DNA from: Planctomycetaceae bacterium
GTDB taxonomy: Bacteria; Planctomycetota; Planctomycetia; Planctomycetales; Planctomycetaceae
DNA length: 64,000 nucleotides
Assembly (NCBI GenBank): GCA_046156195.1
Contig: JBJXEX010000429.1
Span: forward strand, 6,882-70,881
Direction of reading: 5' to 3'
Shown: in pieces, positions 1-30,325 of the stretch
Layout of the letters: every line of letters begins with the position of its first letter
How positions within the stretch are numbered: position 1 is the first letter of the stretch
Notes under the pieces: generated by a model
Seen by the model: the letters and a program-made list of their open reading frames with translations, nothing else
Databases searched by the model: none
What the model was told of the DNA's origin: nothing
Program-made: the position numbers and the translations under genes

Positions 1-3000
1 CCGCCCGTGAGCACGACCAACTCAAATTCCTTGACCGCGTCGCTTCCCAGACTGCCGGTGAGGGACGAATTCGTCAGCGTGAAGGTGGTGATGGTGCTCA
101 AAACGGTCTGCTTCTCGTTGAGTCGATCGGTATCGGCACCCCCTTCGAGAGTGTCCTTGCCCAGCTCGCCGCTGATCGTGTCATCGCCCGCCTGGCCGAG
201 GACTTTGTCGTCGCCAGCTTGCCCATTGAGATCGTCGTTGTCGTTGCCCCCTTCGATCTGGTCGTTCTCGGTGCCGCCTCGGATCGTGTCGTTGCCGTCG
301 TTGCCGAACAGTTTGTCGATGCCCGCACCGCCGTCGATCGAGTCCCCTTGGCTACCGCCGGTGAGGAAGTCGTCACCCGATGAGCCAACCAGTGTCACGC
401 TGCCGGAGAAGCCGCTCGCGTTGAGTGTGTTGGCACTCGTTCCGCCCGTCAGTTTGGCAAGCTCGATGTTCGACACCGAGTCGGTTCCCAAGCCGCCGGT
501 GAGATCGCTGTCGGTGAGCGTCATGTTGACGTTGCCCGATTCGATCAACGTGTCGATGTCGTTGCCGCCGTCGATCGTGTCGTTGCCCGTTCCGCCGGTG
601 AGCTGATCGTCGCCGTCACCTCCGTTGAGTTCGTTGGCACCCGTTCCGCCGGTGAGCACATCGTTACCACCGCCGCCATTGAGGGTCGCGCTGAAGGTGC
701 CGAAGCCCACCGCATTCAGGATGTCGTTGCCCGCACCGCCCGTCAGCGAGGCCGCTTCGATGCCAGTCAGCTTGTCGGAGCCGAGGCTGCCGGTCAGCGT
801 GGTCGTGGTCACGGTGACCGTGCCGCTGAAACCATCCTCGACCACGACGTCGCTGAGTCCGGCACCGCCTCGCAAATCGTCGTTGCCCAGTCCGCCGGAG
901 ACCGAGTCCATCTCACCGGCGTTGCCGTCGAGAGTGTCGATGCCCGCTGCACCGCTGAGCGAATCGTTGTCTGCTCCGCCGTCCAGGAAGTCGTTCCCCG
1001 AACCACCGAACAAGAAGTCATCGCCACCGAGACCGAGCAGCGTCACATTGAAGTTCGCCCCGCTGGCATCGATCACGTTGCCGCTGCTGCCACCGGTCAG
1101 GATCGCCTTCTCGAAGCCGGCGATCAGGTCATTGCCGAAGCCCTCCAGCGTGGTTGCGGTCAGCGTCTGATCCACGTCGGCGGTTTGCAGGAGCACGTCG
1201 CCCCCGACCGTGCTGGAGATCACCGCCGTGTTGGAGCCGCCGTTGATGTCGTCGTTGCCGAGGCTGCCTTGAATGTTGTCGTCACCGCTGCCTCCGATGA
1301 GTGCGAAGAGGAGCGCGGTGGAGGTCGCCGCCGAAGCGTTGATGATGTCGTTGCCGGCTCCGCCGTCGATGGTGTGCAGGTCCGTGGCTCCGGAGATGTT
1401 GAACGTGTCCACCAGACTGCCGCCCACCAACTTCTCGAAGTTCGACAAGTTGATCGTCTTCGTCGCGACGTAATTCACGCTCGATCCGCTGGAGGTCCAG
1501 GTCGCGGTCGCGGCGAAGCCTAGGACCGAGTCGTTGCTATCCGAGCTGCCCACCAACGCATTGATACTGAGGAAGCTGGTCACTGCCGAGGCCACGCTGC
1601 CGTTGAATCCGTCCAGGCTGTTGACCGCCGAGAGCGTGAAGGCTTTCGACGCCGTGGCACTGGCGAAGTTCAGCGTATCGTTGCCGCCGCTGCCGTTGAT
1701 CGTGCCGGAAATCGAGCCGCCATCCTGGAACAGGAAGTCGTCGGTGGAGCTTCCGCCCGTCAGATTCTGGAAGCCGCTGAATCCAATCGACCCCACCGTT
1801 CCGCTGTTGGTCCCGTCGATCGAGAAGATGTTCGCGGTGGTGGCCGTTGCGACCAGCGTATTCGAGGTCGCGGCATTGGCGAACACGTTTTCCAGGCTGC
1901 TCAGCGAGCTGATGTTGATCGTTTGGTTGCCGAGTTTGGCCGACAGGTCCAACGTGTCAGTGCCGTCCCCACCCGCGATCGTCCCGTTGACGCCGCCGTT
2001 CCCCTCCACGATGAATTCATCGTCGCCGTTGTTGCCGGCGAGGTTCACCGTCTGCGGAGCGCCGGTCATGCGAAAGACATCGTTGAACGCGCCGCCGTTG
2101 AGGTTCTCGAACGCACTGAAGGAAAGGAAGGTCGTGCCGTCATCCACCGTCGGGCCGGGGTTGCCGTAGCGGTTCGTGCCATCGACTTCCCATGCCGCGT
2201 TGTCATCCAGGCCGGTGAGCGAATCGAAGCCCGAACCGCCGCCAGTCAGCGTGTCGATGTTTTCGAAGGTGCCTCCCCCCAGCAGCGGTGTCGCGGTGCC
2301 GCCAAAGCCGTCCGGGGCATTCACCGTCAGGGCCACAGCCACGGTCGTCGTCAACGAGGAGAAGTTGATCGTGTCGGTCCCGGCACCGCCGTCGATGCCA
2401 CCGGCCAATGTGGCACCGAGCGAGAACGTGAACGTGTCCTTGCCGCTGTCCGCACCGCCGCGCAACGAGCCAGTGCGTGCTCCCGAGATCGTGAACTCGT
2501 CGATGCCGGTGCCGCCGGTCAGCGTGTCGAAGCCAGAGAACGCCAGTTGGCGACCGTTGGCGAAATACATTTGCGTGGCACCGATGGTCCACGACGCAAC
2601 CGCACCCGAGCCGATATCCAAACCCGTGAGTTGATCGGTCGTGGCCGACGAACTGCCGTTGATCGCGTTGATGTTGCGGAAGCCGCCGCCGATCACGCTT
2701 TCGTTGCCGTCGAAACCATCCGAAGCTCCGGTCCCCGTCAGCAAGACGTCGCGTGGACCGGTCATCGCGGTGAAGTTCAGAAGATCCGATCCCAAGCCGC
2801 CGTCGAGTACTCCGCTCAAGCTGCCGCTGTCGGTGAACGCGAACGTGTCCGCACCGCCGGAGCCGGTCAAGTTCTCGAATGATTGGAACACGGTGCTGCC
2901 AGCCACGCCGCTGTTCGACCCGGTGACGTTGAACGTGCTGCCGGTGATCAGTCCCGTCAGCGTGTCGTTGCCAGAGCCGCCGATCAGAGTTTCGATGCCG

Positions 3001-5500: not shown

Positions 5501-8500
5501 CGTAGCTCACCGTGTGACTGCTGCCCGCCGCGGGGAAGTCATCGACGACGACAACAGTGCCGCTGCTCGAAGTGAAGAAGTTATGCGTGACCGAGGTCAC
5601 CGTCCCGTTGATCAACTCCAGCGTATCGCTGCCGAGTCCGCTTCCGCCGTCGAAGACAACCCCCGTGGTTGAGACCGGATTGCCGAACGGAATCGGGCTG
5701 GCGTCACTGAGGCTGACGCTGCCGTTGTAGTCGATCGTCAGCTTGTTGCTGAATCCGTTTTCGGCCGTGATCACCACCTGGTTGACGGTGTTGGGGTTGT
5801 GGGCCGGCACCAGATCGACGGTCGAGCCGGTGCGGTAGACGTGCAGCCTGTTGTCCGTGTCGATCTTCAACGTGATGTCGTGCGCGGCAGCAGCCACGAA
5901 GTCCGCCGGGTTGACGATCATGTTTTCGACGATATCGACCAGATTGATCGTCACGGTCGCTTCATCGGCCAACCGGGCGATGGCCGGAGCATTGTCGGTC
6001 ACGCGCACCATCAGGTTGAATTGCGGTGTGACCTCGAAGTTCAGCAGCGTCGGATCGGCGACCGTGATGACCCCCGTGTTCGCGTCGATCGCGAACGTGT
6101 TCCCCGTGTTGCCCCCCGTAATGCTAAACGTAAAGCCGTTGAAGAACGCTCCGGTATCGGACCCAACGATCGCTCCGCCCGTCAAAGCCGTCAGCGCGAC
6201 CGAGTTCTCCGCCAACGTGCGAGTCTGATTATTGATGACCGGAGCACGGTTGAGTTGAATCGTCACGGTGCCGGGCGACGTGGAGGAAGTCCCCGTATCG
6301 TCGAAAGCGTTGTAGGTGATCGTGTCGGTATCCATGAGCGTCGGATGGCTACCCGCATTGATCGAGTAGGTGAACCGCCCGCCGGTTCCGGGGACGACCG
6401 GAGCCGCCTCAAACACCAACGTGCCGATGGCCCCGTTCGCCACGACCACCGCCGTGTTGAGCGACGAACCGACATCGTTGTCGGTGTCATTGGCCAGCAC
6501 GCCGTTATCGAACGGTTCGGCCGGAGTCACGGTTCCCCGCGCATCGGTCGTGGTGATCGTGCCATTCACAAGACCGGCCGTTGGGCTGAACAGCGCCACT
6601 CCCAGTGCGAGCGCCGGATCGTAGGGAACCACATACAGATCATTGTTCGCGACCGGCGGATCGGGCACCTCGGTCACGTTGATCGTGAAGGTCTGCGAGC
6701 TGACGTTGTCGTGCGGCGACGGACTGGCCGTGCCGTCGTCGGTCGCGGTGATCGTGACCGTCGCAATACCGCTGGTGTTTCCCTGGATCGCGTAGATCAA
6801 ATCGAAATTCGCACCATTGGCCACCAGCGTCGGCGGCGTGGTGAAAATCAGATTGCCGAATGTGATCAGCGTGCTGGCGGTCATCGTCACGGTCTGCGGG
6901 ACGACTTCGTCCGCGGGGCCTTCCAAAATGCTGGTGACCAAATTGCTAATCGTTTGCGTCCCAACGGTGTCTTCCACAATCATCGTGCTGGTGCTGGTCA
7001 GCGTGAATGTTGGCTCGTCGTTGATCGGCGCGATCTGAATCGTGAACGTCAGCGCGGGCGAACTCGTGTTTTGGCTGGGTGCCGTACTGGAACCCGTATC
7101 GGTCACAGTCACATCGACCGTCACCGTGCCATTGGCATTCTGAGCCAACAAGTAGGTCAGATTGCCCGTCGCCGTGTTGATCACCGGCGTTCCGTTGAGC
7201 AATGCCGCTCCCGAAGTCACCGTGACGTTGTAGCTCACGATCGTCTGAATCTCGGTCGCACCCGGATCGCGATCATTGAAGTTGAACGCGAACCCGGCGA
7301 CCGTTTGCAGAGTCGGAACGAGTCCCGACGCATCTTCATTGACGTTGATCACCGGCGAGAGAATCTGGAATGTTGGCGCATCATCCACGGCCGTGACATT
7401 GATCGTCAGCGACTGAGTAAAGGTGCGCGGAGCGGCCACACCGTTGGTCGTTCCGTTGTCGGTCGCGACGATACTGATCACCGCCGAGCCGTTGACGTCG
7501 GTGTCCGCCAGCGTGAAGGTGAGATTGCCCCCCGAATTGATCGTCGGCTGTCCGCCGACTGCGAACAACGCCGCGCCCGAGGTGATGCTGACCGCGAACG
7601 TCAGAGTCTGATTCACTTCATCATCCGCCGTCGCGGGACCGCCGAACGGATTCACAAAGCCCAGTCCCGCCGTCGCGATCGCTGCGGCCGATGTCCCTTC
7701 CAGAACATTGAACGTCGGGGCATCGTAGGTGAAGTTCGGAGCGTCGTTGACTTCGGTCACTCGGAACAGCACGACTTGCGTAATCGCGTCCTTCGGGGCG
7801 GGAGAAGTGATCGGAGGCGTGGGATCGATCCAGAAATTCCCCAGGTCGTTGACGTCAATCGTCAACCGCATGTCATCGAAGCCGGTGACTGGGTTGGCGA
7901 TCCCATCGCCGTTGGGATTCACGAAGTCGGTGGTCGGAGTGTAAATCAAGCCATTCAGCGCGGCGTTGATTTCCGCCAGCGTGCCGCGAATCACGAGCGT
8001 GCCATTGGAACCGTCATAGTCTTCTCCGACGAATCCCGTCGTCAGCCCCAACGCCGCCGGTGTTCCCGGCAACGTCAAGGTTCCGCTGACAATCGCTCCG
8101 CCCAAAGTCGAGAGGCTGACCTGGAGATCCCCCGTCGGATTCAAGAAGGCGTCGGGGTCGCTAATCGTGATGACGTTGTTGAAGGCTGCGGAGAACGTCA
8201 GCGGCGTCTCTTCCGCCGTGGTCTGAATACCCGGAATGCCGATCACCGGCGGGTCGTTCGCGCCATCGGTGATGGTGATGGTGAACGCCGAGGTGCCGTT
8301 GAGCTGATTGGGTTGCAGGCGATTCCCCGCGATGTCGCGGATGCCGCCCGACGTGCCGAACAGGTTCCCGTCGACCAAGGTCGACATCGACACGCTGGCC
8401 GAAGTGGACGGAGTCAGCGAGCTGGTGATGCGCAGTTGCGGCACCGGTCGCGCGGCATAAGCGCCGCGGAATTCGAGGTCCGCAAAGGTGCCAGTCACCG

Positions 8501-17500: not shown

Positions 17501-20500
17501 TCGGGTTGGGATTGGCGATGTAGCCGTCGCTGGAGGAATCGAAGGTGCCACTGGCTCCGCCAAACCGATCATCCTTCAACGAGGTGAAGATGACCGGGTT
17601 CTCGGCCGTCCCTTCGGCAATCAAGAGGGGCGAACCGCGTTCGCCCTCGATGCGTGCATTGCGAACCTTCAACACGACGCCGGGATCGATCGTCAATCGG
17701 CCACCCAGGCGAGCCAACAGGTCGCCACCTTTGGTGACAGGATTCAACCGCACCGCGCCCCCCACCAAGGGAGAGGCACCGGCGGTCGGGGCCGGGTCGT
17801 TGTCCACGGTCAGCGGCAGGATGTCCAAACTTCCCAGCTTGTTGACGAATTCAATCGAAATACTGGCTTGCGGGAACGGGCCGCCTGTCACCAAGACGTT
17901 GCCGTCTCCGATGCCATTGAGCCGTTCGAGCGCGTTTTGAATCTCCACGTCCGAGGCGGTCGGCGACAAAGAAATCGTCGTCGTGGCCAGATTCACCGCC
18001 GAGCCGCCAGCATGTGGGGCGGCGACGGTGTCGTTGATCCCGCGGATCACCCACACTTGATTGCCCGTGATATCGGTGACCGCCAGTTGTTCTCCAGCAA
18101 TCCCGCCGATCGCGATGTTGAAGTCCACCGTGTTGATGTCGGTGTCCACCGTCGGCAGAGCGCTGGAATTCGCGACTTGAATCGTCCGCTGCCTCACCAT
18201 TCCCATCGCAGTTGTGTGCAGCGCGGCGGTCGTGCCGTTGAATCCACGAACCACGGTCAGAATGTTGCCCGTCGCGTTCGTCACGGCCATTTGCTCGCCG
18301 TTGATCTGAATGATGTAGTCCGTCGAGCTACCCAGCGCGTCAACGGCTCCCAAATCGGCCGCGTTCGTCACCTCGATGCTGACCACGGAGACCGTGCGTC
18401 CCAATGCCAAGTGCTGCGCTCGCGTGGTGTTGTTGAAGCCGCGGATCACCGTCAGCGTGTTGCTCACGCGGTGAGTGACCGCCATGTCCTCGTTGTCGAG
18501 CCGAATGATGTAGTCGATGGTTCCGACAATACCATCATCGGTCCCCAGCGCGCCGGCGTTCAACACGTTAAACGACGTCTGTGTGAGCGTCGTGATCTGC
18601 GACGTGTTCACCGTCGTGGTGATGATCGCGTTTTCCGCCAGTTGGCTCGTCCCCACGCCGATGGCCAGCGGCAGCGAGGTCGAAGCGGATGGAGCGAACG
18701 TCGGCCCGTTGTAAGTCAGCGTGAAGTTGCCCCCCGTCGCTTTCCCCAACATCTCCAACTCTTGAACCTCGTTGGTCACCAGCGGGCCGGCGGCATGGCC
18801 CACCAGGAACAGGTTCTCGGTCAACACATGCGTGATATCCGTGTCATCGAACCGAGCCAGCGTCGCCAGCTTGTCGATCGTCTGATCGGGGAATGTCTCG
18901 ATGCGGATAAACAGCCCATTGACCGAGTTGTTCGTGACCGTGTTGCCATGCACGTCCGGGCCAATGCGGTCGAAGGTATCCTCGAAGCTGTTCGGACTAG
19001 CGGAGATCGCCGCGTCATTGCTGTTGGTGATGCGGTTGAAGGCGATCGTGGGACGCTCATCAATGATGTGAATCGGCGTGAAGACCAAGTCCGGCACCGA
19101 GTTCACGACCACTTGTCCGCCACCGTAGCTCAGATCAGCGTGGAAGACCGAGTTCAAGAAGATGTCCGCGCCGTCGCGGTCCCCTTGCACGTTGTCGTTC
19201 ATGTCCGAGTCGGTGCGGAACACCAGTCCGCCCCATTGCCCGGCCACGGGCCCGCCGGAGGCCGCGTCTGTATCGCCGCCGATCGCGTCGTTACGGAACG
19301 TCGTGAAGAACACTTCGACTCCCGGCGTCCCGAGAACTTGCAGTGCGCCGTCCTGCCGGTCGAGACCTTGAATCGACGTGCCAACGTCAATGTTCGCTTC
19401 TTGCAGCTTGAACACCGCTCCGGCGTCAATCATCAGCGTGACGCCTTGTGGAACATCCAAGTTGGTGCCGTCGGCCAGTGGGTTCTTTTGCGGCGTATTG
19501 TCCACGCCGATCAGATAGGGAGTCGCGTCAGCTTCGGTCGCCAAGTTTCCGTCGGCACCGCCGTTGCCCACGATCCGAATGATGTTCGACGCCGTCAGCA
19601 AGCCGTGCGTCCCTTTGACGTCCAACGACTTGATGTTCGTCAGGTCGATCAACCCAGCCGCCGTGTTGGAAGTCACGGCAACCGTGTTGGACAGACTGTC
19701 CGCGACGATCTCAGTGTTGATTGCCGCCGTGATGGCGTTGACGACGTCGGCCACAGTCATGGCCGCAGTCAAGTCAATGCGGGCATTCGAGCCGATCACC
19801 GGGGTTGCTCCCCCCAGCTTGTCGAACTCAAAGACGCGAGTGTCATTGATGCCATCGTCGAGGACGAACAAGTCACCGTCATTGATGTCGGCGGGGCCGT
19901 TCACCGGCACCACGATCCGCGAAGCGGCACGCCTCACCGCCGAGTCGATGTCGTCGTACGGATTGGCGAGAGATCCGACCGTCGGAAACGCCTGAGAAGC
20001 GGTCGTGGTCTTGTCGACAAAAATCGTATTGCCCGTCTGGAACCAGAAGTTGAACTGTCCCCCCGCATTCCCATCGGCGTCACCATCAAACCCAGTGGTC
20101 TGGGCCGTGGCCGACGCGGCCGGGTTGGACTGGTTATCGCTGTCAGTCAGTTGCGACGCCGGCGCTGAGGCTCGGAAGTTCAATTGCAGATCGTAGGTTC
20201 CCTGCGTCTGACCACCGAAGCCAGTATCGGAAACCGTGGGATCGTAGGCCGTGTTGCCCGACGCCGAGACACCGACGTAGTAAGTGCCGGCCGACAGCTC
20301 AACGCCAATGAACGAGTCGTGCCCGTTGTAGTCGTCGTTCCGCGAAATCACTTCGCGGTTGCCACCGACCAGTTCGATCGTGGTGGGCGACATGACTCCG
20401 CCCACGTTGGTGGTCGCCGTCCCCGTGAACGAAGCCTGCAACAACAGTCGAGCGGTCGGATGCGCATTGATCGCGTTGACCACCGCTTGCACCGTCGTGC

Positions 20501-23500
20501 CCGTGGTATCGACATCGACATTGATCTGGTGGCCGGTGACGGTCACGGTCGGCACGCCATTCAACGCTCCGAGGTGATCGCTCGAAGTGACGACGACGTT
20601 CAGGTCATTCCCCAAAACGCCCGCCGATCGCGCCGTGAATTTCACATCCACCGCGCCCGGACCCGTGGTCCCGAAACTGGAATTGGCCGTGGCATACGGG
20701 TCGCGGAACAGCGTCAACGCACTATCCAGCGGGCTGCTGGGAGTCTGACGCTGCGAATTGACCTCCGCCGTGAAATAACCGGTCTCGGTCAGACTGAATT
20801 TGTAGAGATCAATGTCCGTCGAATGGTTCGGATAGATGCGATTCAAATGGACGTAGTCGTGCTCGCCACCCGGAGTCTCAGTAACGGTGCCGCCTCCCAT
20901 GAAGGCATGCAAGTCGTAGGCGTGACCGAGTCCAACCGCATGTCCCAATTCGTGAATCGCGACTCCAAACCAGCCACCTTGGTAGATGTCATCGCCACCC
21001 AGCGCGGCGAAGTTCATCAAGACCTGACCGCCTGACGCCACGCCCGGAACCGTGTTCGGAATCCCGATGACCGTGAGATCGCCGCTAATCATCTGGATCG
21101 AAGGACCGAGCGATTCGGCCACTTCCTGGAACCGAATCCCCGAATGCCGGCTGAAGAGTTCCAGAATCTGCCGAGTCAGTTCCTTCTGGCCTTCCGTAAT
21201 CAGGTTCGGCAAGCCGCCGCTGTAGGTTCCGGGAAAACCAAAAGTACGCACGCCCAAGGCACCAGCCGAGGAACCGTGGTTCTCGGCGGGCACATCTCGA
21301 TGGCCAGGCTCACCGTCGTCGCCGGGGAACGCCGGCAACGTCACCCAGGACTGCGGCGTAATCGCGCCGGTCAGCGAGCGACTGGCGTTCCCCAGTTCGC
21401 CCACATTGGTCGCGAAGTCGTAACTGGAGTTGTCGTCGGCATTCTGAATCACGGTGACGATGTCGCCCGCACTGTGGACGGACGGAGCACCCCCCGACAA
21501 CAACCCGCGCACCACGGTGAGGGCACCGGTCGGCACATTGACGTGCGTGACACCCATCTGCTCGGTACCGATTTGAATCGTGAAATCGACCGTCGTCGCC
21601 AAGGCATCGACAACCGGCAAGCGCGCCGCATCGGCGGGACTGACGAAAAACGTCGTCGAGGAGAGCGAGTTATTCGTCAACGACAATTGTGTTGTGACGC
21701 TGGTCGGGACATTGATATCCAGACGGTAAGAACCAGTGGTCGTCCCCAAAACCGGTGTACTGGTCGGGCTGGCCCCGGAGTCGTAAACATTGTTTCCGCT
21801 GCTCGAAACGCCGATGAAATACGTTCCAGCATCGAGAACGGCGGAGGTCAGCGTATCCACCGTGCCGTTGCCGACGCCGTTGGCGAATTGCAACTCGGTC
21901 CCAGAGTTGTTGAACAATCGGAGATAGGTGTCGTTCCCGGTCACGCCACCGACTGGCGTGACGGCGGCGGTGATCGTCCCGCCCGCGAAGAGTTTGAATT
22001 CATACAGATCGACGTCGTTCTGACGGTTCCCGTCGTCTCCCAGAAACGCGGTCGTCGTGTAAGCCGGCGCTCCAGCGAACAACGTCCCCAACTGCACGGC
22101 GTTGCCACGCGTGCTGTCATCTTCTGGCGACGTTCCAATCTGCAACCGGAATGTTCCGGTGGGAATCGCGGAGGCGAATGTCAGCGTCGCCAAGTCCTGT
22201 GTCGGGTCGTAGGCCACGCTCATCGGCAAAGCGATCGTGTCGTCCGTCGCGTCGGCCGTCCCCTTGGTGTCGTACAACTGGTAGAAGGCCGGATTCTCAG
22301 CCGCGATCGACGTGTCGATCAGGTCATCGTTGTTGAAATAAACCTGAATCTGGTCGGATGCCTGCGACAACGCCCCGCTCGGTAACCGCGTCACCGGCTG
22401 CGGAACCACCGAGATAACTTGCGCGGCGAGATCCAACTCGAATTGAAGCTGATCGTCCACGCCGTCGCCGAAGAAGTTGGCTCCTGACCTGATAGCTGGT
22501 GCGGCGGATGAATTCGACAACGACAGAGTCGCTGGCGTCGCAGTCGTCGCCCCCGCAGTGACAATCGGAGTGATTCCCGTCGCAGTCAATGACATCAGAT
22601 TCGCACGGATCAGAGCGTTCGCGGACAACGCGGTCACCAGACCATTGGCTGTCGTGAGATTCGCCGCGTTGCTGCTGAGCGTGATGGTGACAGTCCGCAT
22701 CGCCACGTTGGTCGCCACCAACGGAATTGCCGTTGCGGCGGCCGGGTTCGTGAGGAAGCTGACCGCAACATCCTGCCCCGGCCCCGAGGCCACCGCCTCA
22801 AAGCCCAACCAGACGGCTCCCGATGTTCCAAAGTCACTGAAGGCATGAGCGCGAACGTCCGCGCCATGCACTTCGATCAAATAGTGATCATCGGGCGTCG
22901 TCTGAGCGAATCGATAGATGACCTTGTTCGGTTCGGCGGCGCTCAACCGGTCGATGTAGGCCGGCAGCAAAAGCTGTTGCGACGTGTCGTTCGCCCCACC
23001 CAAAGAGATCACGGCGCTGGCAGGAACGGTCAACGCCTGCCCGCTCGCCCCCGTGAAAGTTGCCGTCACGAGACCGCTCGCATCCGTGTCAGCCGCCAAG
23101 GCGTCTAAGAGATGCTGGGCCGTCGTTTCCACGCCGACTTGATTGTTCAACGTGATGAAGATGTTGTCGCCGACCCGCCGAATATCGGGCACAGCAGTGC
23201 CGACATTCCCACTGAGAACATGCAGTTGGATGCGATTCCCTTCGGTGCCAACGCGCGTCGCGGTGAAGGTGAAATCCGCAGGGCCGAAGTCGATCGCGGC
23301 GGACGTCGCCTTGCTGAAATTGAAGCCGCCATCCTGCCCACTGCGGAAAATCTGAATGCCGCCTGGCGTCGAAGATGTCCCCAACGTGGAGGTGTCAATC
23401 GCCTGGCCGGGGCTGAATTGAAACGTCAGCTCGCGCGGCGCGTCGGTACGAATGTCAGTGCCGGTGGGGTTCAGGAACAACCCGATATTGGGAGTCACTG

Positions 23501-23678
23501 AGACCAACCCCGGCCCGATCGTCATTACGCAGCGCTCTTCCAGCGACTCGGCCTGAGCACCGACGACAACGGGGCCGCGTAGCATTTTCGCGTGCTGTTG
23601 TGGGGTGAGTCGTTTCTGGCGGCGTTTCGGAAAGCGGATTTTTCGGGAAAGAGTGCGCAACCAAGGAGTGAAGAACAT
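1..23678 (-). CDS. Giant secreted multidomain protein, truncated at its 3' end by the window edge (>7,892 codons). Order: basic N-terminal leader with ESLEER motif, PPC-like domain, M10/metzincin domain, beta-helix modules, cadherin-like tandem modules, C-terminal RTX-type Ca-binding repeats
   Basis: Absent from the ORF track because there is no stop inside the window. ATG at 23678 (minus) is preceded by AGAGG. Hand translation gives MFFTPWLRTLSRKIRFPKRRQKRLTPQQHAKMLRGPVVVGAQAESLEERCVMTIGPGLVSV... The same frame (top base of each codon = 2 mod 3) gave sensible protein at every point I hand-translated: 23678, 22079, 21419, 20954, 19559, 17957, 17474, 12719, 10175, 7439, 629 and 98. The track lists no complete minus-strand ORF longer than 142 aa in 1-23700, as expected if this frame stays open to the edge. 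Confidence 0.85.
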   Translation of the reverse strand, partial: MFFTPWLRTLSRKIRFPKRRQKRLTPQQHAKMLRGPVVVGAQAESLEERCVMTIGPGLVSVTPNIGLFLNPTGTDIRTDAPRELTFQFSPGQAIDTSTLGTSSTPGGIQIFRSGQDGGFNFSKATSAAIDFGPADFTFTATRVGTEGNRIQLHVLSGNVGTAVPDIRRVGDNIFITLNNQVGVETTAQHLLDALAADTDASGLVTATFTGASGQALTVPASAVISLGGANDTSQQLLLPAYIDRLSAAEPNKVIYRFAQTTPDDHYLIEVHGADVRAHAFSDFGTSGAVWLGFEAVASGPGQDVAVSFLTNPAAATAIPLVATNVAMRTVTITLSSNAANLTTANGLVTALSANALIRANLMSLTATGITPIVTAGATTATPATLSLSNSSAAPAIRSGANFFGDGVDDQLQFELDLAAQVISVVPQPVTRLPSGALSQASDQIQVYFNNDDLIDTSIAAENPAFYQLYDTKGTADATDDTIALPMSVAYDPTQDLATLTFASAIPTGTFRLQIGTSPEDDSTRGNAVQLGTLFAGAPAYTTTAFLGDDGNRQNDVDLYEFKLFAGGTITAAVTPVGGVTGNDTYLRLFNNSGTELQFANGVGNGTVDTLTSAVLDAGTYFIGVSSSGNNVYDSGASPTSTPVLGTTTGSYRLDINVPTSVTTQLSLTNNSLSSTTFFVSPADAARLPVVDALATTVDFTIQIGTEQMGVTHVNVPTGALTVVRGLLSGGAPSVHSAGDIVTVIQNADDNSSYDFATNVGELGNASRSLTGAITPQSWVTLPAFPGDDGEPGHRDVPAENHGSSAGALGVRTFGFPGTYSGGLPNLITEGQKELTRQILELFSRHSGIRFQEVAESLGPSIQMISGDLTVIGIPNTVPGVASGGQVLMNFAALGGDDIYQGGWFGVAIHELGHAVGLGHAYDLHAFMGGGTVTETPGGEHDYVHLNRIYPNHSTDIDLYKFSLTETGYFTAEVNSQRQTPSSPLDSALTLFRDPYATANSSFGTTGPGAVDVKFTARSAGVLGNDLNVVVTSSDHLGALNGVPTVTVTGHQINVDVDTTGTTVQAVVNAINAHPTARLLLQASFTGTATTNVGGVMSPTTIELVGGNREVISRNDDYNGHDSFIGVELSAGTYYVGVSASGNTAYDPTVSDTGFGGQTQGTYDLQLNFRASAPASQLTDSDNQSNPAASATAQTTGFDGDADGNAGGQFNFWFQTGNTIFVDKTTTASQAFPTVGSLANPYDDIDSAVRRAASRIVVPVNGPADINDGDLFVLDDGINDTRVFEFDKLGGATPVIGSNARIDLTAAMTVADVVNAITAAINTEIVADSLSNTVAVTSNTAAGLIDLTNIKSLDVKGTHGLLTASNIIRIVGNGGADGNLATEADATPYLIGVDNTPQKNPLADGTNLDVPQGVTLMIDAGAVFKLQEANIDVGTSIQGLDRQDGALQVLGTPGVEVFFTTFRNDAIGGDTDAASGGPVAGQWGGLVFRTDSDMNDNVQGDRDGADIFLNSVFHADLSYGGGQVVVNSVPDLVFTPIHIIDERPTIAFNRITNSNDAAISASPNSFEDTFDRIGPDVHGNTVTNNSVNGLFIRIETFPDQTIDKLATLARFDDTDITHVLTENLFLVGHAAGPLVTNEVQELEMLGKATGGNFTLTYNGPTFAPSASTSLPLAIGVGTSQLAENAIITTTVNTSQITTLTQTSFNVLNAGALGTDDGIVGTIDYIIRLDNEDMAVTHRVSNTLTVIRGFNNTTRAQHLALGRTVSVVSIEVTNAADLGAVDALGSSTDYIIQINGEQMAVTNATGNILTVVRGFNGTTAALHTTAMGMVRQRTIQVANSSALPTVDTDINTVDFNIAIGGIAGEQLAVTDITGNQVWVIRGINDTVAAPHAGGSAVNLATTTISLSPTASDVEIQNALERLNGIGDGNVLVTGGPFPQASISIEFVNKLGSLDILPLTVDNDPAPTAGASPLVGGAVRLNPVTKGGDLLARLGGRLTIDPGVVLKVRNARIEGERGSPLLIAEGTAENPVIFTSLKDDRFGGASGTFDSSSDGYIANPNPTTGTFTASPVSNQPGRGDWGGVIFNLGGQASFDYAQFSYAGGSVPIEGTSANFNTLEFHEADLRLTNSVFQFNASGQTGSTRNGRGNNDGATVFIRGAQPVIVDNVFQNNDGSVISIDVNSLLDVNVTDLGRSTGRSDSFTQFASNQGPLVRLNRMDNDITGFNGTLGMEIRAGEIIGQGVWDDTDIVHVIQSGRISVDNFHTATGLRLQSATDASLVVKLGQNAGFEIGRADKDGDGLLESNGDDGPLDIDDRIGGTLHILGAPGFPVVLTSVFDDTYGASLDPTGFPQFDTNNDGSTIPSVAQYWSEILIDKYANDRNVVLVNEFEGAVTNGNDLNGTLTGSSNNTSQFLGELAPNNKSADENRRSGFEIHGSIAEDDPTDVDIYSFKGEANTEVWLDIDEVNPNLNTIIEFLSSTGTILARSEDNNTLTPTGVTPLTIQKLPTLGGDFFATTSNEGGMRLFLNGTAGTTSTYFVRVRSTPFNGRSVLENNIEDTNGGLTSGEYQLQIRLRQNDEVPGVMVKFADIRYAQNGIHVQGLPYHSPLTGQVTEVGTNDATNNNATPTTAVQLGNLLQSERNNFSVGGNLTGQGDVDFYKFHIDYAKIQEIQGVNGGGKPWATIIDLDWADGFNRPDTTFAVFTDAGELVYVGRESNVADDQAAPGQLGGDVDDLSRGSGGVLDPFIGTAIFPEFSSYGPDSISPTFYYLAVVNNGRLPQAMNAYFLDTASLANTRVRLEPVNSVVRVAEDHIGFTGYTSNGNARTPISGPLLDITDTSTLSTHVRPFSFADVKLFVTQANNLFAVNPLTGTQTIDYGGLSGNTGTQDIVMRSNGVLYGYQQLDSNTGENGSQGNATAGQLVTLDTGTGTAVTVVGPDNIISGLNGSTIAFNGNANEITHTDNVEALTFRRNGPSAGEYWSLFYSVTEGSNSKLYRGNSDTGDARDVNSNNSNLGFVGEIQLAGVTTASASISNLNFYSTRPGVTGGFTVIINKADITNGQESVSVAGTTITVQTDTNPNTSQATIANLINNNGAASALISARVNANGGDVSAIANGATAIGVGTGTALNAHVTGLAYAATAAQVTAGVSGFRGSQLYGVTDTGLLLRINDATGQATVVRDFAPLGFPNFQGLSIGPQNVSDGSVNRAFHNTLFAITSTGTLVALDINGNGVTAFDTNNEVQEIHVDPASVAPTAGTFTLTFDDTGLGAVGRPLTTDPIAFNAPGSVSRNEVQTFDTGLTPSYGGTFTLTYVDDFAEISSVVDGFDDQLTTTSFQVDNDDDTFAFPATPFLIQVGGEIMRVTNSVPGATFATFTVERAVNGTAPEIHGSDANVFQLRTSNLATSLSNTVATTTVTVLINNLAGSTTLTVNDTTAFGAVNDVVTLRVDNELMLATIVDGTTFTVTRGFAATNLAQHSVNTVVTRVDATLDLQDTTVTTAFPSVATPAAPFRVRIGSEDFLVVGVTQMGVTPTTTTWNLIRGANRTTIATHNPGDVISRIQTTSGIQFNANASGASSVQSALTALAPLAGRVTVTGGPVSQTISTPAVVTFSTNDSFGWRDVPTLTIDTSELIGDEQQRLVLTPNPAFTGSGDVTLSFGGNTTGSLNISTATALDVQNALEALPSIGAGNVVVTGAGPLLNTGYTVTFIGTLQDQDVALIAVNNAGVSNNERQQLNFTGAPTGGGFTLRFGAAGPVTPTITYSATALTMEANLKAGLDSLVATVRGVGSSVTVTQTATDQYAIVFNGGNAADFDFAALQIVANSLAPAGASLTVATLENGNQGVTATETRRGLDVLMAPTITETIKGVQSVEDHLENLLSIANNNVIVTGGDLPGTVSPATPVRVTFAGGPYANQDVNLMTLNPTGLVTGVYEVATTGTIGDGTPDNFSIATGINNPTGLAFSALDFNLWHPTERRGAPDNPGHGINESFDDTRRPDMEGRMVTGGTDTRIQVEQQGGASFYFGLEEYRGDGANTNYFNYSTLSADGDVQYGIFDDEFQRDLASNPAIGSNYNLPGGAYGSLSTNTVNLSAYAASDKPTLYFNYFLDTPNVQAAAGTQVMRDSARVFASGNGGATWELIATNNQALESELPQFLSHSSTQDYGLATNLQQVQELFDTSAWRQARVDLSRYAGLANVAFRFDFSTFGKIGDSSLIGANNGEDLGQLTDNDGADADQGGDLNTDEGFYIDDIIVGFAERGELVTGTRGFNETDFDDLYSGGFAGGRANIDNSPDTPLASMFLTTTGAYQFEIRRGTEYGNQVDQDDDEVSIGFELDTNDRLVIDEVSIAPPVVETFDIPDEFNPDALQFASPFPSSAAWFKSNVASQSPTTSFRSGVLTAQFQQSIAQLTNFATGTGNLVYYARVDGAIGNTLQFFDGGTLLATTPATGATSPVFVAVSVPVTAGTHNFQWIYSKNVAGVVGDDAAFIDSISIPGSPANAPARLGDDNIEREQGMVIIEGNFIRDVSGTGIIVEEGRRDVYAAGAPSNFPYPGSIRQFPVLNTNRWVTHASIVNNVVANFGAVGIEFSGYQNDNTDTLTNAAVPIGKILNNTVYGGATRTGTGILIRNTVSPTLLNNLVANTVTGVSVDASSAAAGTEVQTTYFNNNTTDITGATNNDGQNLTSANTAGSPLFVNAATGNFYLAASVLPGSPNLAIDSSLNTLQARAPYTQITTQLGIPQQDLFAPDIDRFGQTRKDDNGTPNAGGGANIFKDRGAIDRVDPNGPTATLIVPQDNGTTVLSETATLTDLNNAANSVTVDLPTDGTVLLTEFQISLLDVGGVGVDNASVTAGAFTKDSGGSLLSHNRLVNVTRNGVPFEDYQLAYNSNTKRLILTSLTTFEPDSIYNVFLNRGQENERQRLGMAGIPIAGNFTLTFDQPGASSTLLTTIDSSTLTLTIDPARVQGTFAPGLYAAGTYILRVDDELMDVATIVGNNITIRAGGRGFGGTTAAAHQSGVDMFQILSSETTPAMGVGALPYNATAGQIQTALENLTAIVAGDVLVTGGPLSVTGTFADLEFRGAYAARPVPQLRITSSLTPSTSASVSMSTLVDGNLFGTSGGIRDIAGNRLQPNQLNGTSAFTITITDGANDPPVIGIPGIQTTAEETPLTFSAAFNNVITISDPDAFLNPTGDLQVSLSTLGGAIVSGTLTLPGTPAALGLTTGFVGEDYDGSNGTLVIRGTLAEINAALNGLIYTPTTDFVNPNGDGIANPVTGFDDMRLTIDVNDLGNFWIDPTPPITSPAPKDAITQVVLFRVTEVNDAPNFTYDAPTFNVLEGTSAAAIATAGLGFVNPFGGPATADDEVNQTLTFAVSITSGAALFAVGGQPTINSGGNLTFTLADTDVNGSAVISIVATDNGTTNGVAAPRTFTQSLTINVTAVDDAPTFQILSPVINVNEDASGLVPTLQTVAGFAFNFNDRDPGATEIQTIVSYNVTVTSGAALLNGTPVINTATGNLTYLLAQNANGTVTVDVTVTDTGSSTAPSQNTSSPALTFTIQIAPINDEPTFTLTSTSTMIVEDTVGTQTISNLVTSILEGPADEVVPQTVTMTASTLITFGNLIFTTPPTLVANGANFDLIYAIQGNTSGIATVTITATDDGTASPSPHDNVSSQTFTINVTEVPDPPVANNDLYVVPYDPALALGVALFSPTAGLVNGTITTTDARGTVTPAEPFDNGVLANDTDNDVGSSLNTAVVVANGAIGTLVFEAAPVVPGTGGRFTYSINAGSHPTLMDTDTITYNAFDDTGTSSTSPGTVTIQLNRAPVINNQTRTLAENSVALTALTGGAIVGSDTGAFFNGFTFSITGGNTGNTFAIDANTGVITVADPTLLNFEVTPQFNLMVRVTDNAPAIARLADEATVTINLVDIVENMIVNPADFVAAAAHDITLKIDTDNRLHVYRTGSTVDLVPAHNPNTVNQVVITAENGFSNKLTIDYNGSVSLSDASPIPFGNPVSTTGVVFDGGSGLGSDTLELINGTVTSVTHNFFTSSSGTVVVVDDFPAAGSSHTVSYVGLEPILDTLTATNRTFNFSGVNDDVTLVASGTAGRNVISTPVASPTSEIVTFTNPVAGGSLTINTGDGTDTLRLTSVDGGFAATVVVTVNGGSAPVGTFDSLFGRVSAVNAFAITTANDTGTLTNGTLVTNFASFENLTGGTGNDSFRLGEVAGVAFGVTGRIDAGTGSSDSLSYQPYTAANAATVNLMTGSATNVFGGAVGGITGIDSVVGGAGNDTLIGHNLVNGWSVTAAQTGSLVNTNGTFSFAAVETLIGGTGTDTLTGPNLVLANDWNLTGPAAGTGNITGVISFQSMENLAGNANTDTFRFTGGSVSGTVSGGSGLDALNYSGVAGPVSVNLSNSSANLINGGLANGFSSIENFTGSASAADTLRGTDSTTLWDITSDNAGTVGTIPFASFEHLVGGAGQDTFQFADNRVVSGSINGGGGTTDAATFAAYNSAVSVNFSTSIVTVTGPTRTFGISAIESVTGGNSASDSITGHNQVNAWNINAMDAGTLTNTSGAFTFSRFETVNGSASFDDSFTLGASGSLRGSLNGFSGSDKLDLSAIVADRNFLLTGIPDATGYAGSETAITGGYTGINEIVVKNAPSDTLTGITGRDATWELGVLGNPTQYRYIDQSGVALKFSGFERLSAAAGARNNFLVTGNQSFDLVGSTAADLFQLNNGAILSGTVDGMGGNDTLSVTSASSAQTITLTAINASSGSGFDGTLTPSLNSVSSPTFRGIETIVGGNGNDTLVGLPTAPANWTASTTGIYTAAGATLTFSKIDNLNGGSDVDTFNISGSQNVNLNGGGGDDVFNFADGAVLGGSLVGGLGNDTVSFLGSTSVSIALDRFSGIETLIGGSGNDTLTGLITGSTFNVTGSNSGVAGSTVFQSFENLTGSGGADTFAFTDSGSLSGVLDGGLGSDLLNFTAMTGPRDVLLTGTGASDGFDGNESVIGGGFRNINAINGSSSATTDQLTGLDIGSGAVASWTIGATQMYFANGRQLAFSGFDTLTGGTGIDEFTISGARTGSLRGGADSGKDTFTFSLGATLAGGIDGGAGTDTINFSSLTTTVAVALTVNAPDGFGGTATPLLGGGTFENIDTLTGGGSGFDSLTGLDDNAAWEVDGTNRYGNPGPTVDDGTTFLSFSAFENLNGGAFNDVFRMTGAPQTVNLAGNNGDDEFIVEGNGGVNGTIAGGDGTDTLDLSAKLGNQTINISSLSSLENVFANAATSNTLVATATTANIFSIDGTNSGTVGSIGFSGFQNLTGGSSTDDFLFQDGGSISGTINGSGGNDTLNFASATASKAFTLSAVNSLDGFNGSVASAVTSFLSINALVGSSDSNDSVLGFAATATWTSSGSSVNYVATKTINLSNFEKLVGGSLVDTFNISGATDLHTIDGGAGNDIINASAATSTALLFALIGGSGDDNIQGSLGNDDINGGSNTAVISSTVGGDVLLQTADVDQTLTATTLEGFGNDLIAGFEKAILTGGSSGNVIDASGANFNVTLLGLGGDDFLFGGSGNDFLDGGADNDSLSGAAGIDTLDGNAGEMDSVSGGLGNDDLRGGAGLSDVVVEDGFSGTVTVTTTTLTGSLGSDKLTGIEAASLTGGAGNDILNAVGFGTFSATLNGGGGNDVLTGGTGANELNGGDGDDQLTGGTGNDTIDGGNDIDTLIESGNVNMTLTDSDLTGGLGTDSVSNIELAKLTGGTSANTLNASGFSGSVTLVGSSGDDFLTGGSQGDSIDGGAGIDKLFGNDGNDTIRGGTENDQIEGGNDNDDLNGQAGDDKVLGQAGDDTISGELGKDTLEGGADTDRLNEKQTVLSTITTFTLTNSSLTGSLGSDAVKEFELVVLTG
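6250..8270 (-). repeat. Tandem ~120-aa cadherin-like / 'tandem-95'-type Ig-fold modules inside the giant protein
   Basis: Hand translation of 7439-7021 reads FTQSLTINVTAVDDAPTFQILSPVINVNEDASGLVPTLQTVAGFAFNFNDRDPGATEIQTIVSYNVTVTSGAALLNGTPVINTATGNLTYLLAQNANGTVTVDVTVTDTGSSTAPSQNTSSPALTFTIQIAPIN. Module junctions of the (V/I)NDAP / NRAPV / PDPPV / NDPPV kind are seen near 6250, 6650, 7025, 7385, 7745 and 8270. Confidence 0.65.
9780..10180 (-). other. Right-handed parallel beta-helix (PbH1-like) segment of the giant protein
   Basis: In-frame translation from 10175 reads IEREQGMVIIEGNFIRDVSGTGIIVEEGRRDVYAAGAPSNFPYPGSIRQFPVLNTNRWVTHASIVNNVVANFGAVGIEFSGYQNDNTDTLTNAAVPIGKILNNTVYGGATRTGTGILIRNTVSPTLLNNLVA. 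The repeated NNxV/GxGI rungs are typical of the pectate-lyase/NosD-type fold. Confidence 0.55.
12020..12990 (-). repeat. Unnamed repeated modules ending in the motif (V/I)Q(N/S)AL..L..IG.GNV.VTGG
   Basis: Verified in-frame translations: NANASGASSVQSALTALAPLAGRVTVTGGP (12989-12901), GGNTTGSLNISTATALDVQNALEALPSIGAGNVVVTGAGP (12719-12601) and TIKGVQSVEDHLENLLSIANNNVIVTGGDLPGTVS (12104-12001). A fourth copy lies at 17957-17881. Confidence 0.6.
17290..17957 (-). other. GNVxVTGG-type module followed by a beta-helix-type module with a GDWGG motif
   Basis: In-frame translations: ASDVEIQNALERLNGIGDGNVLVTGG (17957-17881) and VSNQPGRGDWGGV (17474-17436). By-eye reading between them gives ...GRLTIDPGVVLKVRNARIEGERGSPLLIAEGTAENPVIFTSLKDDRFGG... 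Confidence 0.5.
19141..19560 (-). other. Second beta-helix-type module with a GQWGG motif (paralogous to 17290-17880)
   Basis: Verified translation: GADGNLATEADATPYLIGVDNTPQKNPLADGTNLDVPQGVTLMIDAGAVFKLQEANIDVGTSIQGLDRQDGALQVLGTPGVEVFFTTFRNDAIGGDTDAASGGPVAGQWGGLVFRTDSDMNDNVQGDRDGADIFLNSVFH. Confidence 0.5.
20880..21200 (-). other. Metzincin (peptidase M10 / serralysin-like) catalytic domain inside the giant protein
   Basis: Verified translation: ...ITEGQKELTRQILELFSRHSGIRFQEVAESLGPSIQMISGDLTVIGIPNTVPGVASGGQVLMNFAALGGDDIYQGGWFGVAIHELGHAVGLGHAYDLHAFMGGGTV. HELGHAVGLGH (20954-20922) is the HExxHxxGxxH zinc signature. Confidence 0.8.
21960..22080 (-). other. Core of a PPC (pre-peptidase C-terminal)-like domain, N-terminal to the metzincin domain
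   Basis: Verified translation: FAGAPAYTTTAFLGDDGNRQNDVDLYEFKLFAGGTITAAV. The D-x-D-x-Y-x-F...G pattern is typical of PPC domains. The full domain extent was not determined. Confidence 0.45.
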
Positions 23679-24068
23679 GGATCACAGCCTCTAAGTTAAG
23701 AGTTGGGCCCGCTGCGATACCGCCAAGAGCAGGAAGGCGAGAGGGAGCACGATAATAATCCAATGAAACCGCTGGCAATGGCCGCATCGAATTTCGTGGT
23801 TATAGAACCCCGCATCGCTCTCAATGGTTCGCAAGAATCGACGATCCCCCCGCTCCGAAGACACGGAGGGCCAAAGTCAAATTTCGGATACCCTGCAACG
23901 CGACCGTTTGTCCGAATTCGTGCGGGACTGCCGACTGCCCAAGATGCCTACCACCGAACCGCCTGGATGCGGGCTGTCGATTGCCGCTCGCAAACCGATT
24001 GCAACGATGCGACCGACAATGTCAGTCGCGAACATCGGATGAGCGTCGCCGTCTGACCAACGGACGTT

Positions 24069-29179: not shown

Positions 29180-30304
29180 CTATCGTCCACCGGTCTTTGC
29201 GGCGGCGTTCGTCGCCGTGCGGCTGGTGGGGTCAATGATCATTTCGGCTTGCAGACCGGGACGTAGCGAAAGATCGGGATTCTCGACTTCGGCCCAGACT
29301 CGGACTTGGGCATTGACCGGGTCGATCTCCGGGCTAACGAAGATGATTTTCCCTTTGACGACGATTGGCTTCTCCTCTTCCGATTGTTGCACCAGCACTC
29401 GCACGGCCGCCCCGCGTAGTGAGCCGGTGATGTGCCGGCTATCGACGAAGCCTTCGACCTTCAGCCGATCGAGGCGGACGACTCGCAACACGCGCTGACC
29501 CGGTTCGAGCCACTCGCCGCGATGCCGCAGCGTCTCGACCACGACGCCATCCAGCGGCGAACGAATCTGTCGCCGAGCCAATTGCAATTGTGCCTGTTCG
29601 ACCGCGCGGGCCTTCACGTCGCGAGTCAGCGCATCGACATCCTTTTGCATCTTCGCTTGCTCGACCGCCAGCTTCAGACGCGCGACCATTTGATCTTGTT
29701 CGGTGATGGTCGAGTCTTCAATTTGCTTTTGCATTTGTGCGAGCGACTGCTCGAACTCCGCCTTTTCGATCTCCAACTCGTTTCGTTCCAGGATCAGCCT
29801 CAAGCGGTCCACCTCGGTCAGCGAGACGCTCTTCTCGAACGACTTGCGAGCCTGCACGGCTCGGTCAAATTCCACTTTGGAGGAGTCGCGGGACTTCGTC
29901 GCGTGCCGGACGGCGACATTGTTCTCCGCCTTCATCGTTGCGATGCGCTGGGCGATGCCCGCTTGAGTGCGATCGTGCTCGGCCTCTTTCAACAGAGCTT
30001 CCGCCGTCCGAACCGGCAGCGTGTTCTTGGCTTGCCGATCGGCGATGTCCAAATCCAATTCCGCGCGAGCGACCGCCAGCTTCGAGTCTTCGGCATCCAT
30101 CTGGCCGAGCACCTGTCCGGCTTTGACGAGATCCCCATCGCGAACATCAAGCCGTTCCAGCACACCCGCCTCACGCGCGGGAATCTCGGCTTCATCGAGC
30201 ACTCGGATCAGCGCCGATTGCACTTTGATCGGCTCACCCGCCGAGACTGCCAGCGCGTTCACGGAAATCGCTAAAACGGTCATTAGCAATCGGGCAGTCA
30301 TCAT
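29180..30304 (-). CDS. HlyD-family / membrane-fusion periplasmic adaptor protein
   Basis: Track ORF 29180..30337 starts at GTG. ATG 30304 follows GGAGA and begins the signal-like MMTARLLMTVLAISVNALAVSA. It has a lipoyl-like hairpin (AREAGVLERLDVRDGDLVKAGQVLGQMD), a long coiled coil, IRSPLDGVV and a beta-barrel region. Confidence 0.8.
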   Translation of the reverse strand: MMTARLLMTVLAISVNALAVSAGEPIKVQSALIRVLDEAEIPAREAGVLERLDVRDGDLVKAGQVLGQMDAEDSKLAVARAELDLDIADRQAKNTLPVRTAEALLKEAEHDRTQAGIAQRIATMKAENNVAVRHATKSRDSSKVEFDRAVQARKSFEKSVSLTEVDRLRLILERNELEIEKAEFEQSLAQMQKQIEDSTITEQDQMVARLKLAVEQAKMQKDVDALTRDVKARAVEQAQLQLARRQIRSPLDGVVVETLRHRGEWLEPGQRVLRVVRLDRLKVEGFVDSRHITGSLRGAAVRVLVQQSEEEKPIVVKGKIIFVSPEIDPVNAQVRVWAEVENPDLSLRPGLQAEMIIDPTSRTATNAAAKTGGR

Positions 30305-30325
30305 TGTTCTCCGTACGGTGAAGCC

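Follow-up and report, generated by a model that had tools for sequence, protein, structure and literature searches.

The window analysed here is a stretch of 64,000 nucleotides from a draft genome of a Planctomycetaceae bacterium (GCA_046156195.1, contig JBJXEX010000429.1, positions 6,882 to 70,881; G000:C418:6882-70881 in our numbering of genomes and contigs), and its left part is occupied by one giant gene on the minus strand. The frame starts with an ATG at position 23678, one codon after an in-frame stop, and runs through 7,892 codons without a stop to nucleotide 3 (3..23678; open frame and GC content at third codon positions, GC3), leaving the window at its left edge in a listing of open reading frames (ORFs) with open ends. 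A first-pass annotation of this DNA had proposed exactly such an uninterrupted frame of more than 23.6 kb, encoding a protein of more than 7,892 residues, and our translation, free of in-frame stops, agrees with it. Extension into the contig adds another 975 nt (325 codons) up to a stop at contig position 5906. The full gene thus comprises 24,654 nt, contains no N bases and encodes 8,217 aa, of which aa 1-7892 fall within the window. The computed mass of the protein is 842 kDa and its isoelectric point is 4.1; it has a single cysteine, at aa 50. AGAGG is found 11-15 nt before the ATG, and a sigma-70-like promoter match (a consensus match only) lies about 70 nt upstream of it, at 23749..23778. 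Unless stated otherwise, all coordinates below are window positions on the minus strand.

The giant gene is intact and real. Its GC3 stays between 0.71 and 0.82 in every block of 1,000 codons, and that of the neighbouring genes is 0.72-0.74. A repeat search found no direct DNA repeats of 40 bp or longer within the gene; the repeats of the protein differ too much in their DNA to provoke collapse during assembly, and collapse or expansion of repeats is therefore unlikely. Long ORFs also exist on the plus strand inside the giant gene (up to 1,675 aa, e.g., 5799..10826). In these, the GC peak falls in codon position 1, and they are therefore antisense by-products of a GC3-rich coding strand.

Family models recognise little of this protein. 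When Pfam was run on the whole giant and on ten overlapping pieces of 900 aa, only HemolysinCabind (E 6e-64) and Cadherin (E 3e-10) matched significantly, with PPC, Peptidase_M10, Cadherin_4, Big_9 and DUF5123 remaining below threshold; no Pfam match at all fell in the N-terminal 550 aa. NCBIfam added generic RTX families only, and a single-sequence search of aa 1-4000 against the PDB returned no match.

A matrixin-like metzincin catalytic domain is located near the N-terminus, at aa ~809-949 (20832..21254), as indicated by its motif, a family profile, an AlphaFold2 (AF2) model and Foldseek. The zinc motif HELGHAVGLGH occupies aa 909-919 (20922-20954), inside the interval 20880-21200 in which the first-pass annotation had read a metzincin, and the methionine of the Met-turn, Met927, is encoded at 20898-20900. 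The annotation had stated that its reading would fall without a significant M10 match here. Pfam alone did not provide one: Peptidase_M10 (PF00413) scored 17.6-22.9 bits on the giant against a gathering cut-off of 24, with the whole and piecewise scans giving 17.6-19.1 bits over no more than 24 residues at the zinc motif. Since the score fell narrowly short, the domain was examined by profile and by fold, and both of these support it.

A word-indexed search with aa 700-1150 retrieved 27 giant proteins of 4,363-7,980 aa; the named ones came from Gimesia and Pirellulales, and many carried precomputed PF00413 assignments. In an alignment of aa 760-1000 of our giant with 19 of these homologues (alignment A1), E151, H160 and G33 are invariant, and H150, H154, G157 and M168 are conserved at 90% or more. 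When the aligned members were scanned singly, PF00413 matched 19 of the 20 at E<=0.01, with 1.1e-9 as the best value, and none of the Pfam scans of the giant or of these 20 members reported the serralysin-specific family (Peptidase_M10_C). Compared with the PDB, the A1 profile found, at E 2e-9, the catalytic domains of the matrix metalloproteinases (MMPs) MMP-12, MMP-1 and MMP-8. These matches span about 100 positions between helix A and the Met-turn, and each of the 60 matches listed was an MMP. The AF2 model built on A1 reached a predicted local distance difference test (pLDDT) score of about 90 for residues 50-170 of the piece, and its elements follow the canonical order: a strand, helix A, four strands, the active-site helix and a C-terminal helix. 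Its closest Foldseek neighbours in the PDB were MMP-8 (E 2.7e-5), karilysin (2xs3, 3.6e-5) and MMP-16 (~3e-5), with a target-normalised template modelling (TM) score of 0.6, and the top 50 matches were MMPs or karilysin, with no serralysin among them.

The Met-turn points in the same direction. Its methionine stands 8 residues after the third histidine in our giant and 8-10 residues after it among the homologues, which is matrixin spacing; the sequence behind the third histidine reads ...GLGHAYDLHAFMGGG, with Ala next, Met at +8 and no Tyr behind Met. Overall, sequence and model indicate that the domain is a genuine minimal metzincin, closest to M10A (the matrixins and karilysin, PF00413), with which it shares HExxHxxGxxH, Met at +8, the fold of five strands and three helices, and a C-terminal helix of the 'D..H...IYP' type. 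It differs from matrixins in several respects. The structural-zinc His of the MMP-12 S-loop aligns to non-His positions in the family, there is no cysteine-switch propeptide (the sole Cys being that at aa 50), the Pfam score is just under threshold, and the domain, at aa ~809-949, is embedded in a far longer chain of 8,217 aa. Alignment A1 also reveals an EPGHRD motif at aa 790-795 (21294..21311), some 115 aa ahead of the zinc site, that is nearly invariant among homologues (E31, P32, H34 and R35 at 90% or more, G33 invariant); one might speculate that it could be a pro-segment or a metal switch.

The exact HExxHxxGxxH motif is present in 22 of 28 sequences, namely the giant and 21 of its 27 homologues, and four same-genus orthologues, about 50% identical overall, retain both the zinc motif and the Met. 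Such retention in divergent proteins indicates that the motif is under purifying selection and that the protease is no relic in this lineage. The first-pass annotation had asked whether the enzyme acts in cis, acts on outside surfaces or is a relic: the last option is now dropped for this lineage, which narrows the question to processing of the giant itself or cleavage of external substrates. We conclude that the protease is probably catalytically competent, judging from its conserved residues and predicted fold. The motif has decayed in the six other homologues (P0004, P0010, P0013, P0014, P0019 and P0027). These pseudo-protease versions read, for example, QEFVHNFPFPH, HEVGK or HQIGH, and QEFVH is the version in the closest full-length relative, P0004.

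Around and behind the protease extends a mosaic of modules. A PPC-like beta-sandwich precedes it at aa 555-626 (21801..22016; PF04151 at E 3e-4, its 22 bits being short of the cut-off of 25.9), and internal similarity points to further PPC-like segments at aa ~955-1135 (split), ~2430-2560 and ~2620-2760. Comparison of homologues delimits three conserved regions: region A at aa 1180-1635 (18774..20141), read as a beta-helix in the first-pass annotation but with no family match; region B at aa 1975-2365 (16584..17756); and region C at aa 3936-4335 (10674..11873), where 43-47% identity is common to many relatives. Region B is the most conserved stretch that we examined, with a mean column identity of 62% and about 100 invariant columns, including those of WDDTDI.H and D.DDRIGG, and its conservation exceeds that of the protease domain. 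Neither the Pfam scans, which included the homologues, nor a profile search of the PDB gave a match to region B, which we regard as a candidate undescribed functional domain. A PbH1-like pattern in its sequence suggests a beta-helix. The beta-helix modules named in the first-pass annotation were not verified: Pfam scans of regions A and B with their homologues gave nothing significant. There were sub-threshold hints only, namely a DUF5123-like segment at aa 4601-4699 (9582..9878; 28 bits where 35 are required) and a Beta_helix match at E ~0.2 in two homologues. A beta-propeller-like region with an inserted alpha/beta module is found at aa ~2845-3235 (13974..15146) in a modest-confidence model. 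Here the annotation's reading is backed by the identity of the neighbours, all 50 top Foldseek matches of the AF2 model of aa 2745-3240 being beta-propellers, and weakened by the quality of the match (pLDDT 60, TM-scores 0.1-0.4).

The modules that the first-pass annotation had left unnamed resolved, by self-comparison and profiles, into two repeat types. The NEVQ type is about 95 aa long ('NEVQ...GG.FTL.F...A..VQ.ALE.L..IG.GNV.V.G') and occurs in five to six copies; the second type, 'E.M.V...RG.NGT.A..H', is about 70 aa long and occurs in eight copies, one at 21444-21665 and seven between aa 1700 and 5025. Several NEVQ modules are interrupted, with one to three copies of the second type nested inside them. 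One of them, at aa 1636-1990 (17709..18773), is split by three, as seen in profiles and self-comparison; further NEVQ blocks are located at 11874-13973 and 8349-8957. The internal modules of the giant are 20-40% identical to each other. The NEVQ profile matches three tandem repeats of PDB entry 9d93, 'Tail tip cage, gp23' (E 6e-20), and that of the second type matches 8vjh, 'Minor tail protein' (E 3e-6), as well as the gpJ-like tip attachment protein 8rk3; the DNA region of the latter module also matches PHROG 1101, 'tail protein' (phrog_1101). Thus, small display modules occur both in cellular giants and in the tail tips of phages. Both repeat types of the giant are common to these phage proteins, whereas in the giant they serve as building blocks of a cellular protein, one type nested in the other, and no other phage genes surround the giant gene. 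A literature search on 'tail tip cage' found no paper.

The C-terminal part begins with divergent cadherin-like or bacterial Ig-like repeats at aa ~5110-6000 (5679..8351; Pfam Cadherin E 3e-10, Cadherin_4, Big_9). This block also matches the extracellular cadherin (EC) repeats of cadherin-23 in the PDB (E 1.5e-6), and the cadherin-like modules of the first-pass annotation are thereby confirmed. A sparse, degenerate RTX-like region follows at aa ~6000-7430 (1389..5681), in which 'F..hE.L.GG.G.D' motifs are spaced about 40 and about 110 aa apart. Dense canonical RTX nonapeptides (PF00353) then occupy aa 7430-7892 in the window (3..1391) and continue to aa ~8160 outside it. On the last 837 aa, PF00353 matches with E 6e-64 in 17 stretches. 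A count of exact motifs gives 35 for the tandem GGxGxDxUx nonapeptides, and the PDB match is the RTX domain of CyaA (E 7e-16). The roughly 1,800 residues of RTX-type repeats announced by the annotation therefore need to be divided: canonical RTX is confirmed and dense at aa ~7430-8160, while the preceding ~1,400 aa are sparse and degenerate. The chain closes with a 57-aa tail ending in ...DIFAVFAFDFDTLLIGLP. Protease-type signals of type I secretion systems (T1SSs) consist of an acidic residue followed by hydrophobic ones, and we take this ending to resemble them. A loose '(E/D)I(D/N)E.F.FD...LL' ending recurs in the tails of six RTX-ended giants of the genome and may be a common secretion or anchoring signal. 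As for its occurrence, this ending is common to the giants on contigs C418, C423, C118 (two ORFs), C169 and C27 and to small RTX proteins on C123.

The N-terminus carries a leader of 53 aa (23520..23678), recognised by pattern and from the literature. It starts with MFFTPWLR, continues with a basic stretch and then reads ESLEERCVMT (motif at 23532-23549); the 53 residues are MFFTPWLRTLSRKIRFPKRRQKR...AQAESLEERCVMT. An RRLxxExLExRxLLA-like motif thus follows the basic stretch, as ...KRRQKR...AESLEERCVMT at aa 18-53. PMC8567305, which cites Studholme 2004, reports the N-terminal RRLxxExLExRxLLA motif (PF07595) as a planctomycete-specific putative export signal. This motif is carried by eight of the ten longest proteins of Tuwongella immobilis, several of which were recovered from envelope fractions, and of the 20 motif-bearing proteins detected in that organism, eight were seen only in the envelope fraction soluble in sodium dodecyl sulfate (PMC8567305). 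By its sequence, the leader of the giant is a planctomycete-specific export motif of the PF07595 type.

We scanned the pattern hE.R.hh[STA] over all stop-to-stop frames of at least 300 aa in the genome and obtained 94 matches within 150 residues of the frame start, against 47 everywhere else. The design shared by the 94 ORFs is M..(S/T)WL(R/K), an Arg run and then E.LE.R.LL[STA], and among them are ORFs of 11,333, 8,870, 8,218, 6,942 and 5,765 aa. Examples of leader-bearing giant ORFs are C425:5591-39589, C76:3107-29716, C325:2-20827 and C118:32253-49547.

The protease module marks a very large family. A profile search that covered 1.84 billion cluster representatives found 2,153 proteins at E<=1e-3, of which 628 also passed E<=1e-30; among the 150 listed, most are several thousand residues long and carry the module mostly within a few hundred residues of the N-terminus. 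All 43 strong matches in a collection of species-representative genomes are in records titled as planctomycetes. Together with the identity of a LutB-like gene 7 kb upstream of the giant (96-97% to three metagenome-assembled genomes (MAGs), of which two bear the label 'Planctomyces sp. SH-PL62', and 66-77% to numerous records from Planctomycetaceae and Pirellulales), this places the origin of the giant gene in Planctomycetota. BLAST shows that P0004 (7,980 aa) is collinear with our giant at 47-49% identity over aa 1-5435 and that a conserved core of about 4,000 aa (aa ~740-4950), including the protease and PPC, is common to relatives with non-RTX ends. The precomputed families of these relatives include Calx-beta PF03160, dockerin PF00404 or PF20009, but not HemolysinCabind. 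The RTX tail, in turn, is 30-38% identical to the C-termini of further giants encoded in this genome, none of which has the protease core (ORFs of 11,333, 8,499, 5,765, 3,975, 2,722 and 2,629 aa). Such a distribution indicates that the core was combined with interchangeable C-terminal modules and did not arise as a serralysin with insertions. By sequence comparison, the giant is built from modules and belongs to a large family of planctomycete proteins.

Homologues are present in 12 of 15 genomes of same-genus species, the longest open frame among them reaching 9,028 aa. Within the genus, the protease-PPC region is only 47-55% identical, compared with 90-97% for LutB to the closest MAGs, which may or may not be of this genus. 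The giant therefore appears to evolve very fast, with its catalytic residues under purifying selection. We found no description of this protease-marked family in the literature that we searched.

Taking all this together, we consider it likely that the product is exported, that it forms a giant surface protein stabilised by Ca2+, in which adhesion or binding modules are joined to a matrixin-like protease that is probably active, and that it is not a serralysin derivative. Its location and route would be those suggested, by analogy, by the envelope proteins of PMC8567305. In such a scenario, the leader, with its basic stretch and ExLExRxLL-type motif, would direct export by a route common to planctomycete surface proteins, as the literature on them suggests. 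Outside the cell, the RTX region and the cadherin-like repeats would bind Ca2+ and fold into a stiff fibre or anchor, as known domains of these types do. The ~4,000-aa core, with its PPC sandwiches, propeller-like domain, two strongly conserved regions and modules of the phage-tail-tip type, might then present binding surfaces for particles or other cells, and the matrixin-like protease beside PPC might cut external protein substrates or process the giant itself.

Several observations weigh against this interpretation. Folds are assigned to only about half of the giant. For the giant alone, PF00413 stays under its gathering cut-off, and the decay of the zinc motif in 6 of 27 homologues means that catalysis is dispensable in some lineages. 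The leader was identified by its pattern only: the PF07595 hidden Markov model, 20 positions long, gives weak matches on the genome and does not list the N-terminus of the giant at E<=1. Finally, an RTX tail is normally a sign of type I secretion from the C-terminus, and this is odd beside an N-terminal export signal.

This last point leads to the main rival for the export step, namely secretion by an unlinked type I system. The giant would then be an RTX adhesin in the style of LapA or MpIBP, exported C-terminus first, with the leader as a retention or processing element and the protease as a passenger. About 2,200 aa of RTX-type sequence before a short non-repeat tail would fit such a picture, as would the loose ending shared by the six RTX-ended giants. 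The genome also offers possible components: an ATP-binding cassette (ABC) exporter with an HlyD-type adaptor at C399:6862-10685, an ABC exporter on C123 flanked by small RTX proteins, and many TolC-like genes. However, the pair on C399 is unlinked to the giant and below curated cut-offs, no match in the genome exceeds the curated cut-offs of the T1SS models TIGR01842 and TIGR01843, and no candidate exporter is found near the giant gene. Nor does any operon of an ABC exporter, a membrane fusion protein and an outer membrane protein flank it, as checked upstream with Pfam and downstream by reading translations. The same leader, moreover, is carried by many proteins that have no RTX and is therefore more likely the general signal.

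Comparison with known giant RTX adhesins (LapA, MpIBP, FrhA and SiiE) gives a similar balance. Our giant shares with them very large size, acidity, Ca2+ binding, C-terminal RTX and adhesion-type modules, but its extender is a mosaic of divergent domains instead of near-identical Ig repeats, it has an N-terminal leader, similarity to a retention module was not found, and the window showed no T1SS or LapG/LapD genes linked to it. We think this alternative unlikely, although it retains more weight than any other that we considered. Planctomycete giant surface proteins with PF07595 are a known counterpart of an exported surface protein of the kind that we favour. They have in common with our giant the phylum, the size class of more than 20 kb, the basic stretch with an ExLExR motif, the adhesion-type repeat content and many paralogues per genome; the papers on them do not describe this core with a matrixin-like domain.

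Much less probable is the origin that the first-pass annotation had favoured, i.e., a serralysin (M10B, with its own RTX beta-roll and type I secretion) enlarged by about 5,000 residues that were inserted between its protease and its repeats. The architecture behind that reading is real, as a metzincin of the M10 clan near the N-terminus, several thousand residues and C-terminal RTX do follow one another in a single polypeptide, and the tail, with its acidic residue and hydrophobics, looks like a protease-type T1SS signal. The serralysin origin itself is another matter. Serralysins (AprA, PrtC and serralysin) share with the giant the metzincin zinc motif and an RTX region C-terminal to the protease in one chain; their Met-turn is a distant SxMSY with Tyr as fifth zinc ligand, and Pro follows their third His. 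Our giant instead has Met at +8 without Tyr after it and Ala in the place of Pro, and its nearest neighbours in sequence, profile and fold are MMPs and karilysin. No serralysin-specific family was reported by Pfam, no beta-roll abuts the protease, from which more than 5,000 residues separate the RTX (the first RTX-like motifs occurring ~5,000 aa downstream), and no T1SS operon is adjacent. Furthermore, many relatives have the protease-bearing core without RTX, and other, unrelated giants of this genome carry the RTX tail. Hence, the modules between protease and repeats were not inserted: protease and PPC are part of a conserved core. Both the insertion and the expanded-serralysin origin have to be abandoned.

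It is scarcely credible that the frame is an assembly artefact or a decaying pseudogene, a chimeric or collapsed repeat region open by chance: the genome is indeed a draft in 531 contigs, but 8,217 stop-free codons at 60% genomic GC, uniform GC3, the absence of DNA repeats of 40 bp or longer and collinear orthologues of similar length in other assemblies all speak against it. Equally hard to sustain is a toxin of the MARTX-like or polymorphic kind, with a toxic cargo set free or activated by its protease, which the giant size, RTX and internal protease might recall in a phylum that holds polymorphic toxin systems (PMC3482391): the C-terminus consists of RTX and the 57-aa tail, Pfam and NCBIfam show no toxin or immunity family, and the downstream gene, judged only by its translation, looks like a purM-like housekeeping gene rather than an immunity gene. 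The polymorphic toxin reading was rejected on account of the absent C-terminal toxin domain.

The source draft genome (9.5 Mb in 531 contigs, 93% complete) holds about 20 giant proteins, with 22 ORFs of at least 2,500 aa, the largest of 11,333 aa. Upstream of our giant gene, a Pfam scan identified genes for a DUF2887 protein, an MA-type peptidase-like protein, an M50/HlyD fusion, an HlyD-family protein and the LutB-like protein. Reading of the translations, our only source for the downstream side, suggests purM-like, ABC-2 permease-like and symporter-like ORFs there. The fusion (26835-29117; 760 aa) shows weak Pfam matches to Peptidase_M50 and to the HlyD-type barrel-sandwich, and a separate HlyD-family gene lies beside it at 29180-30337. 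We dropped the fusion as a dedicated partner of the giant because it is multicopy and not syntenic in five relatives: each of five other planctomycete genomes holds 4-7 members of its family, and in the one relative with matchable contigs, about 165 kb separate the giant from the nearest copy. A second giant ORF, of 2,628 aa, starts on the plus strand near the right end of the window (61004-64000) and continues to C418:75711. It has the same N-terminal leader (ESLEAR), and its C-terminus is similar to that of a 3,505-aa ORF on contig C205.

Finally, we would like to comment on what this gene means for its phylum. Genes longer than 20 kb are common in planctomycetes, where they are known as 'giant genes' (PMC5177795). 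Giant genes are thus an already known oddity of these bacteria, and ours is ordinary for the phylum and will not surprise a specialist. The products of such genes are, however, almost entirely uncharacterised, and this one is a clean and complete example with a defined start, a defined stop and a well-supported catalytic domain. With it, the evolutionary story of an expanded serralysin is corrected. The protease module, as the mark of a very large family of giant proteins, offers in its ~150-aa domain a handle that can be expressed and assayed.

It is tempting to go further and to suppose that the matrixin-like and PPC module and the ~4,000-aa core jointly characterise a class of surface fibres with a protease that extends across the phylum, has so far gone undescribed and comprises at least 628 clusters. 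We offer this as a speculative proposal with the odds well against it. If it were true, the protease would be the working head of these fibres, feeding on or remodelling proteinaceous surfaces, the RTX-tailed members would use an N-terminal leader together with a C-terminal tail of the type I kind, and the rapid divergence of the family would reflect an arms race or niche tuning.

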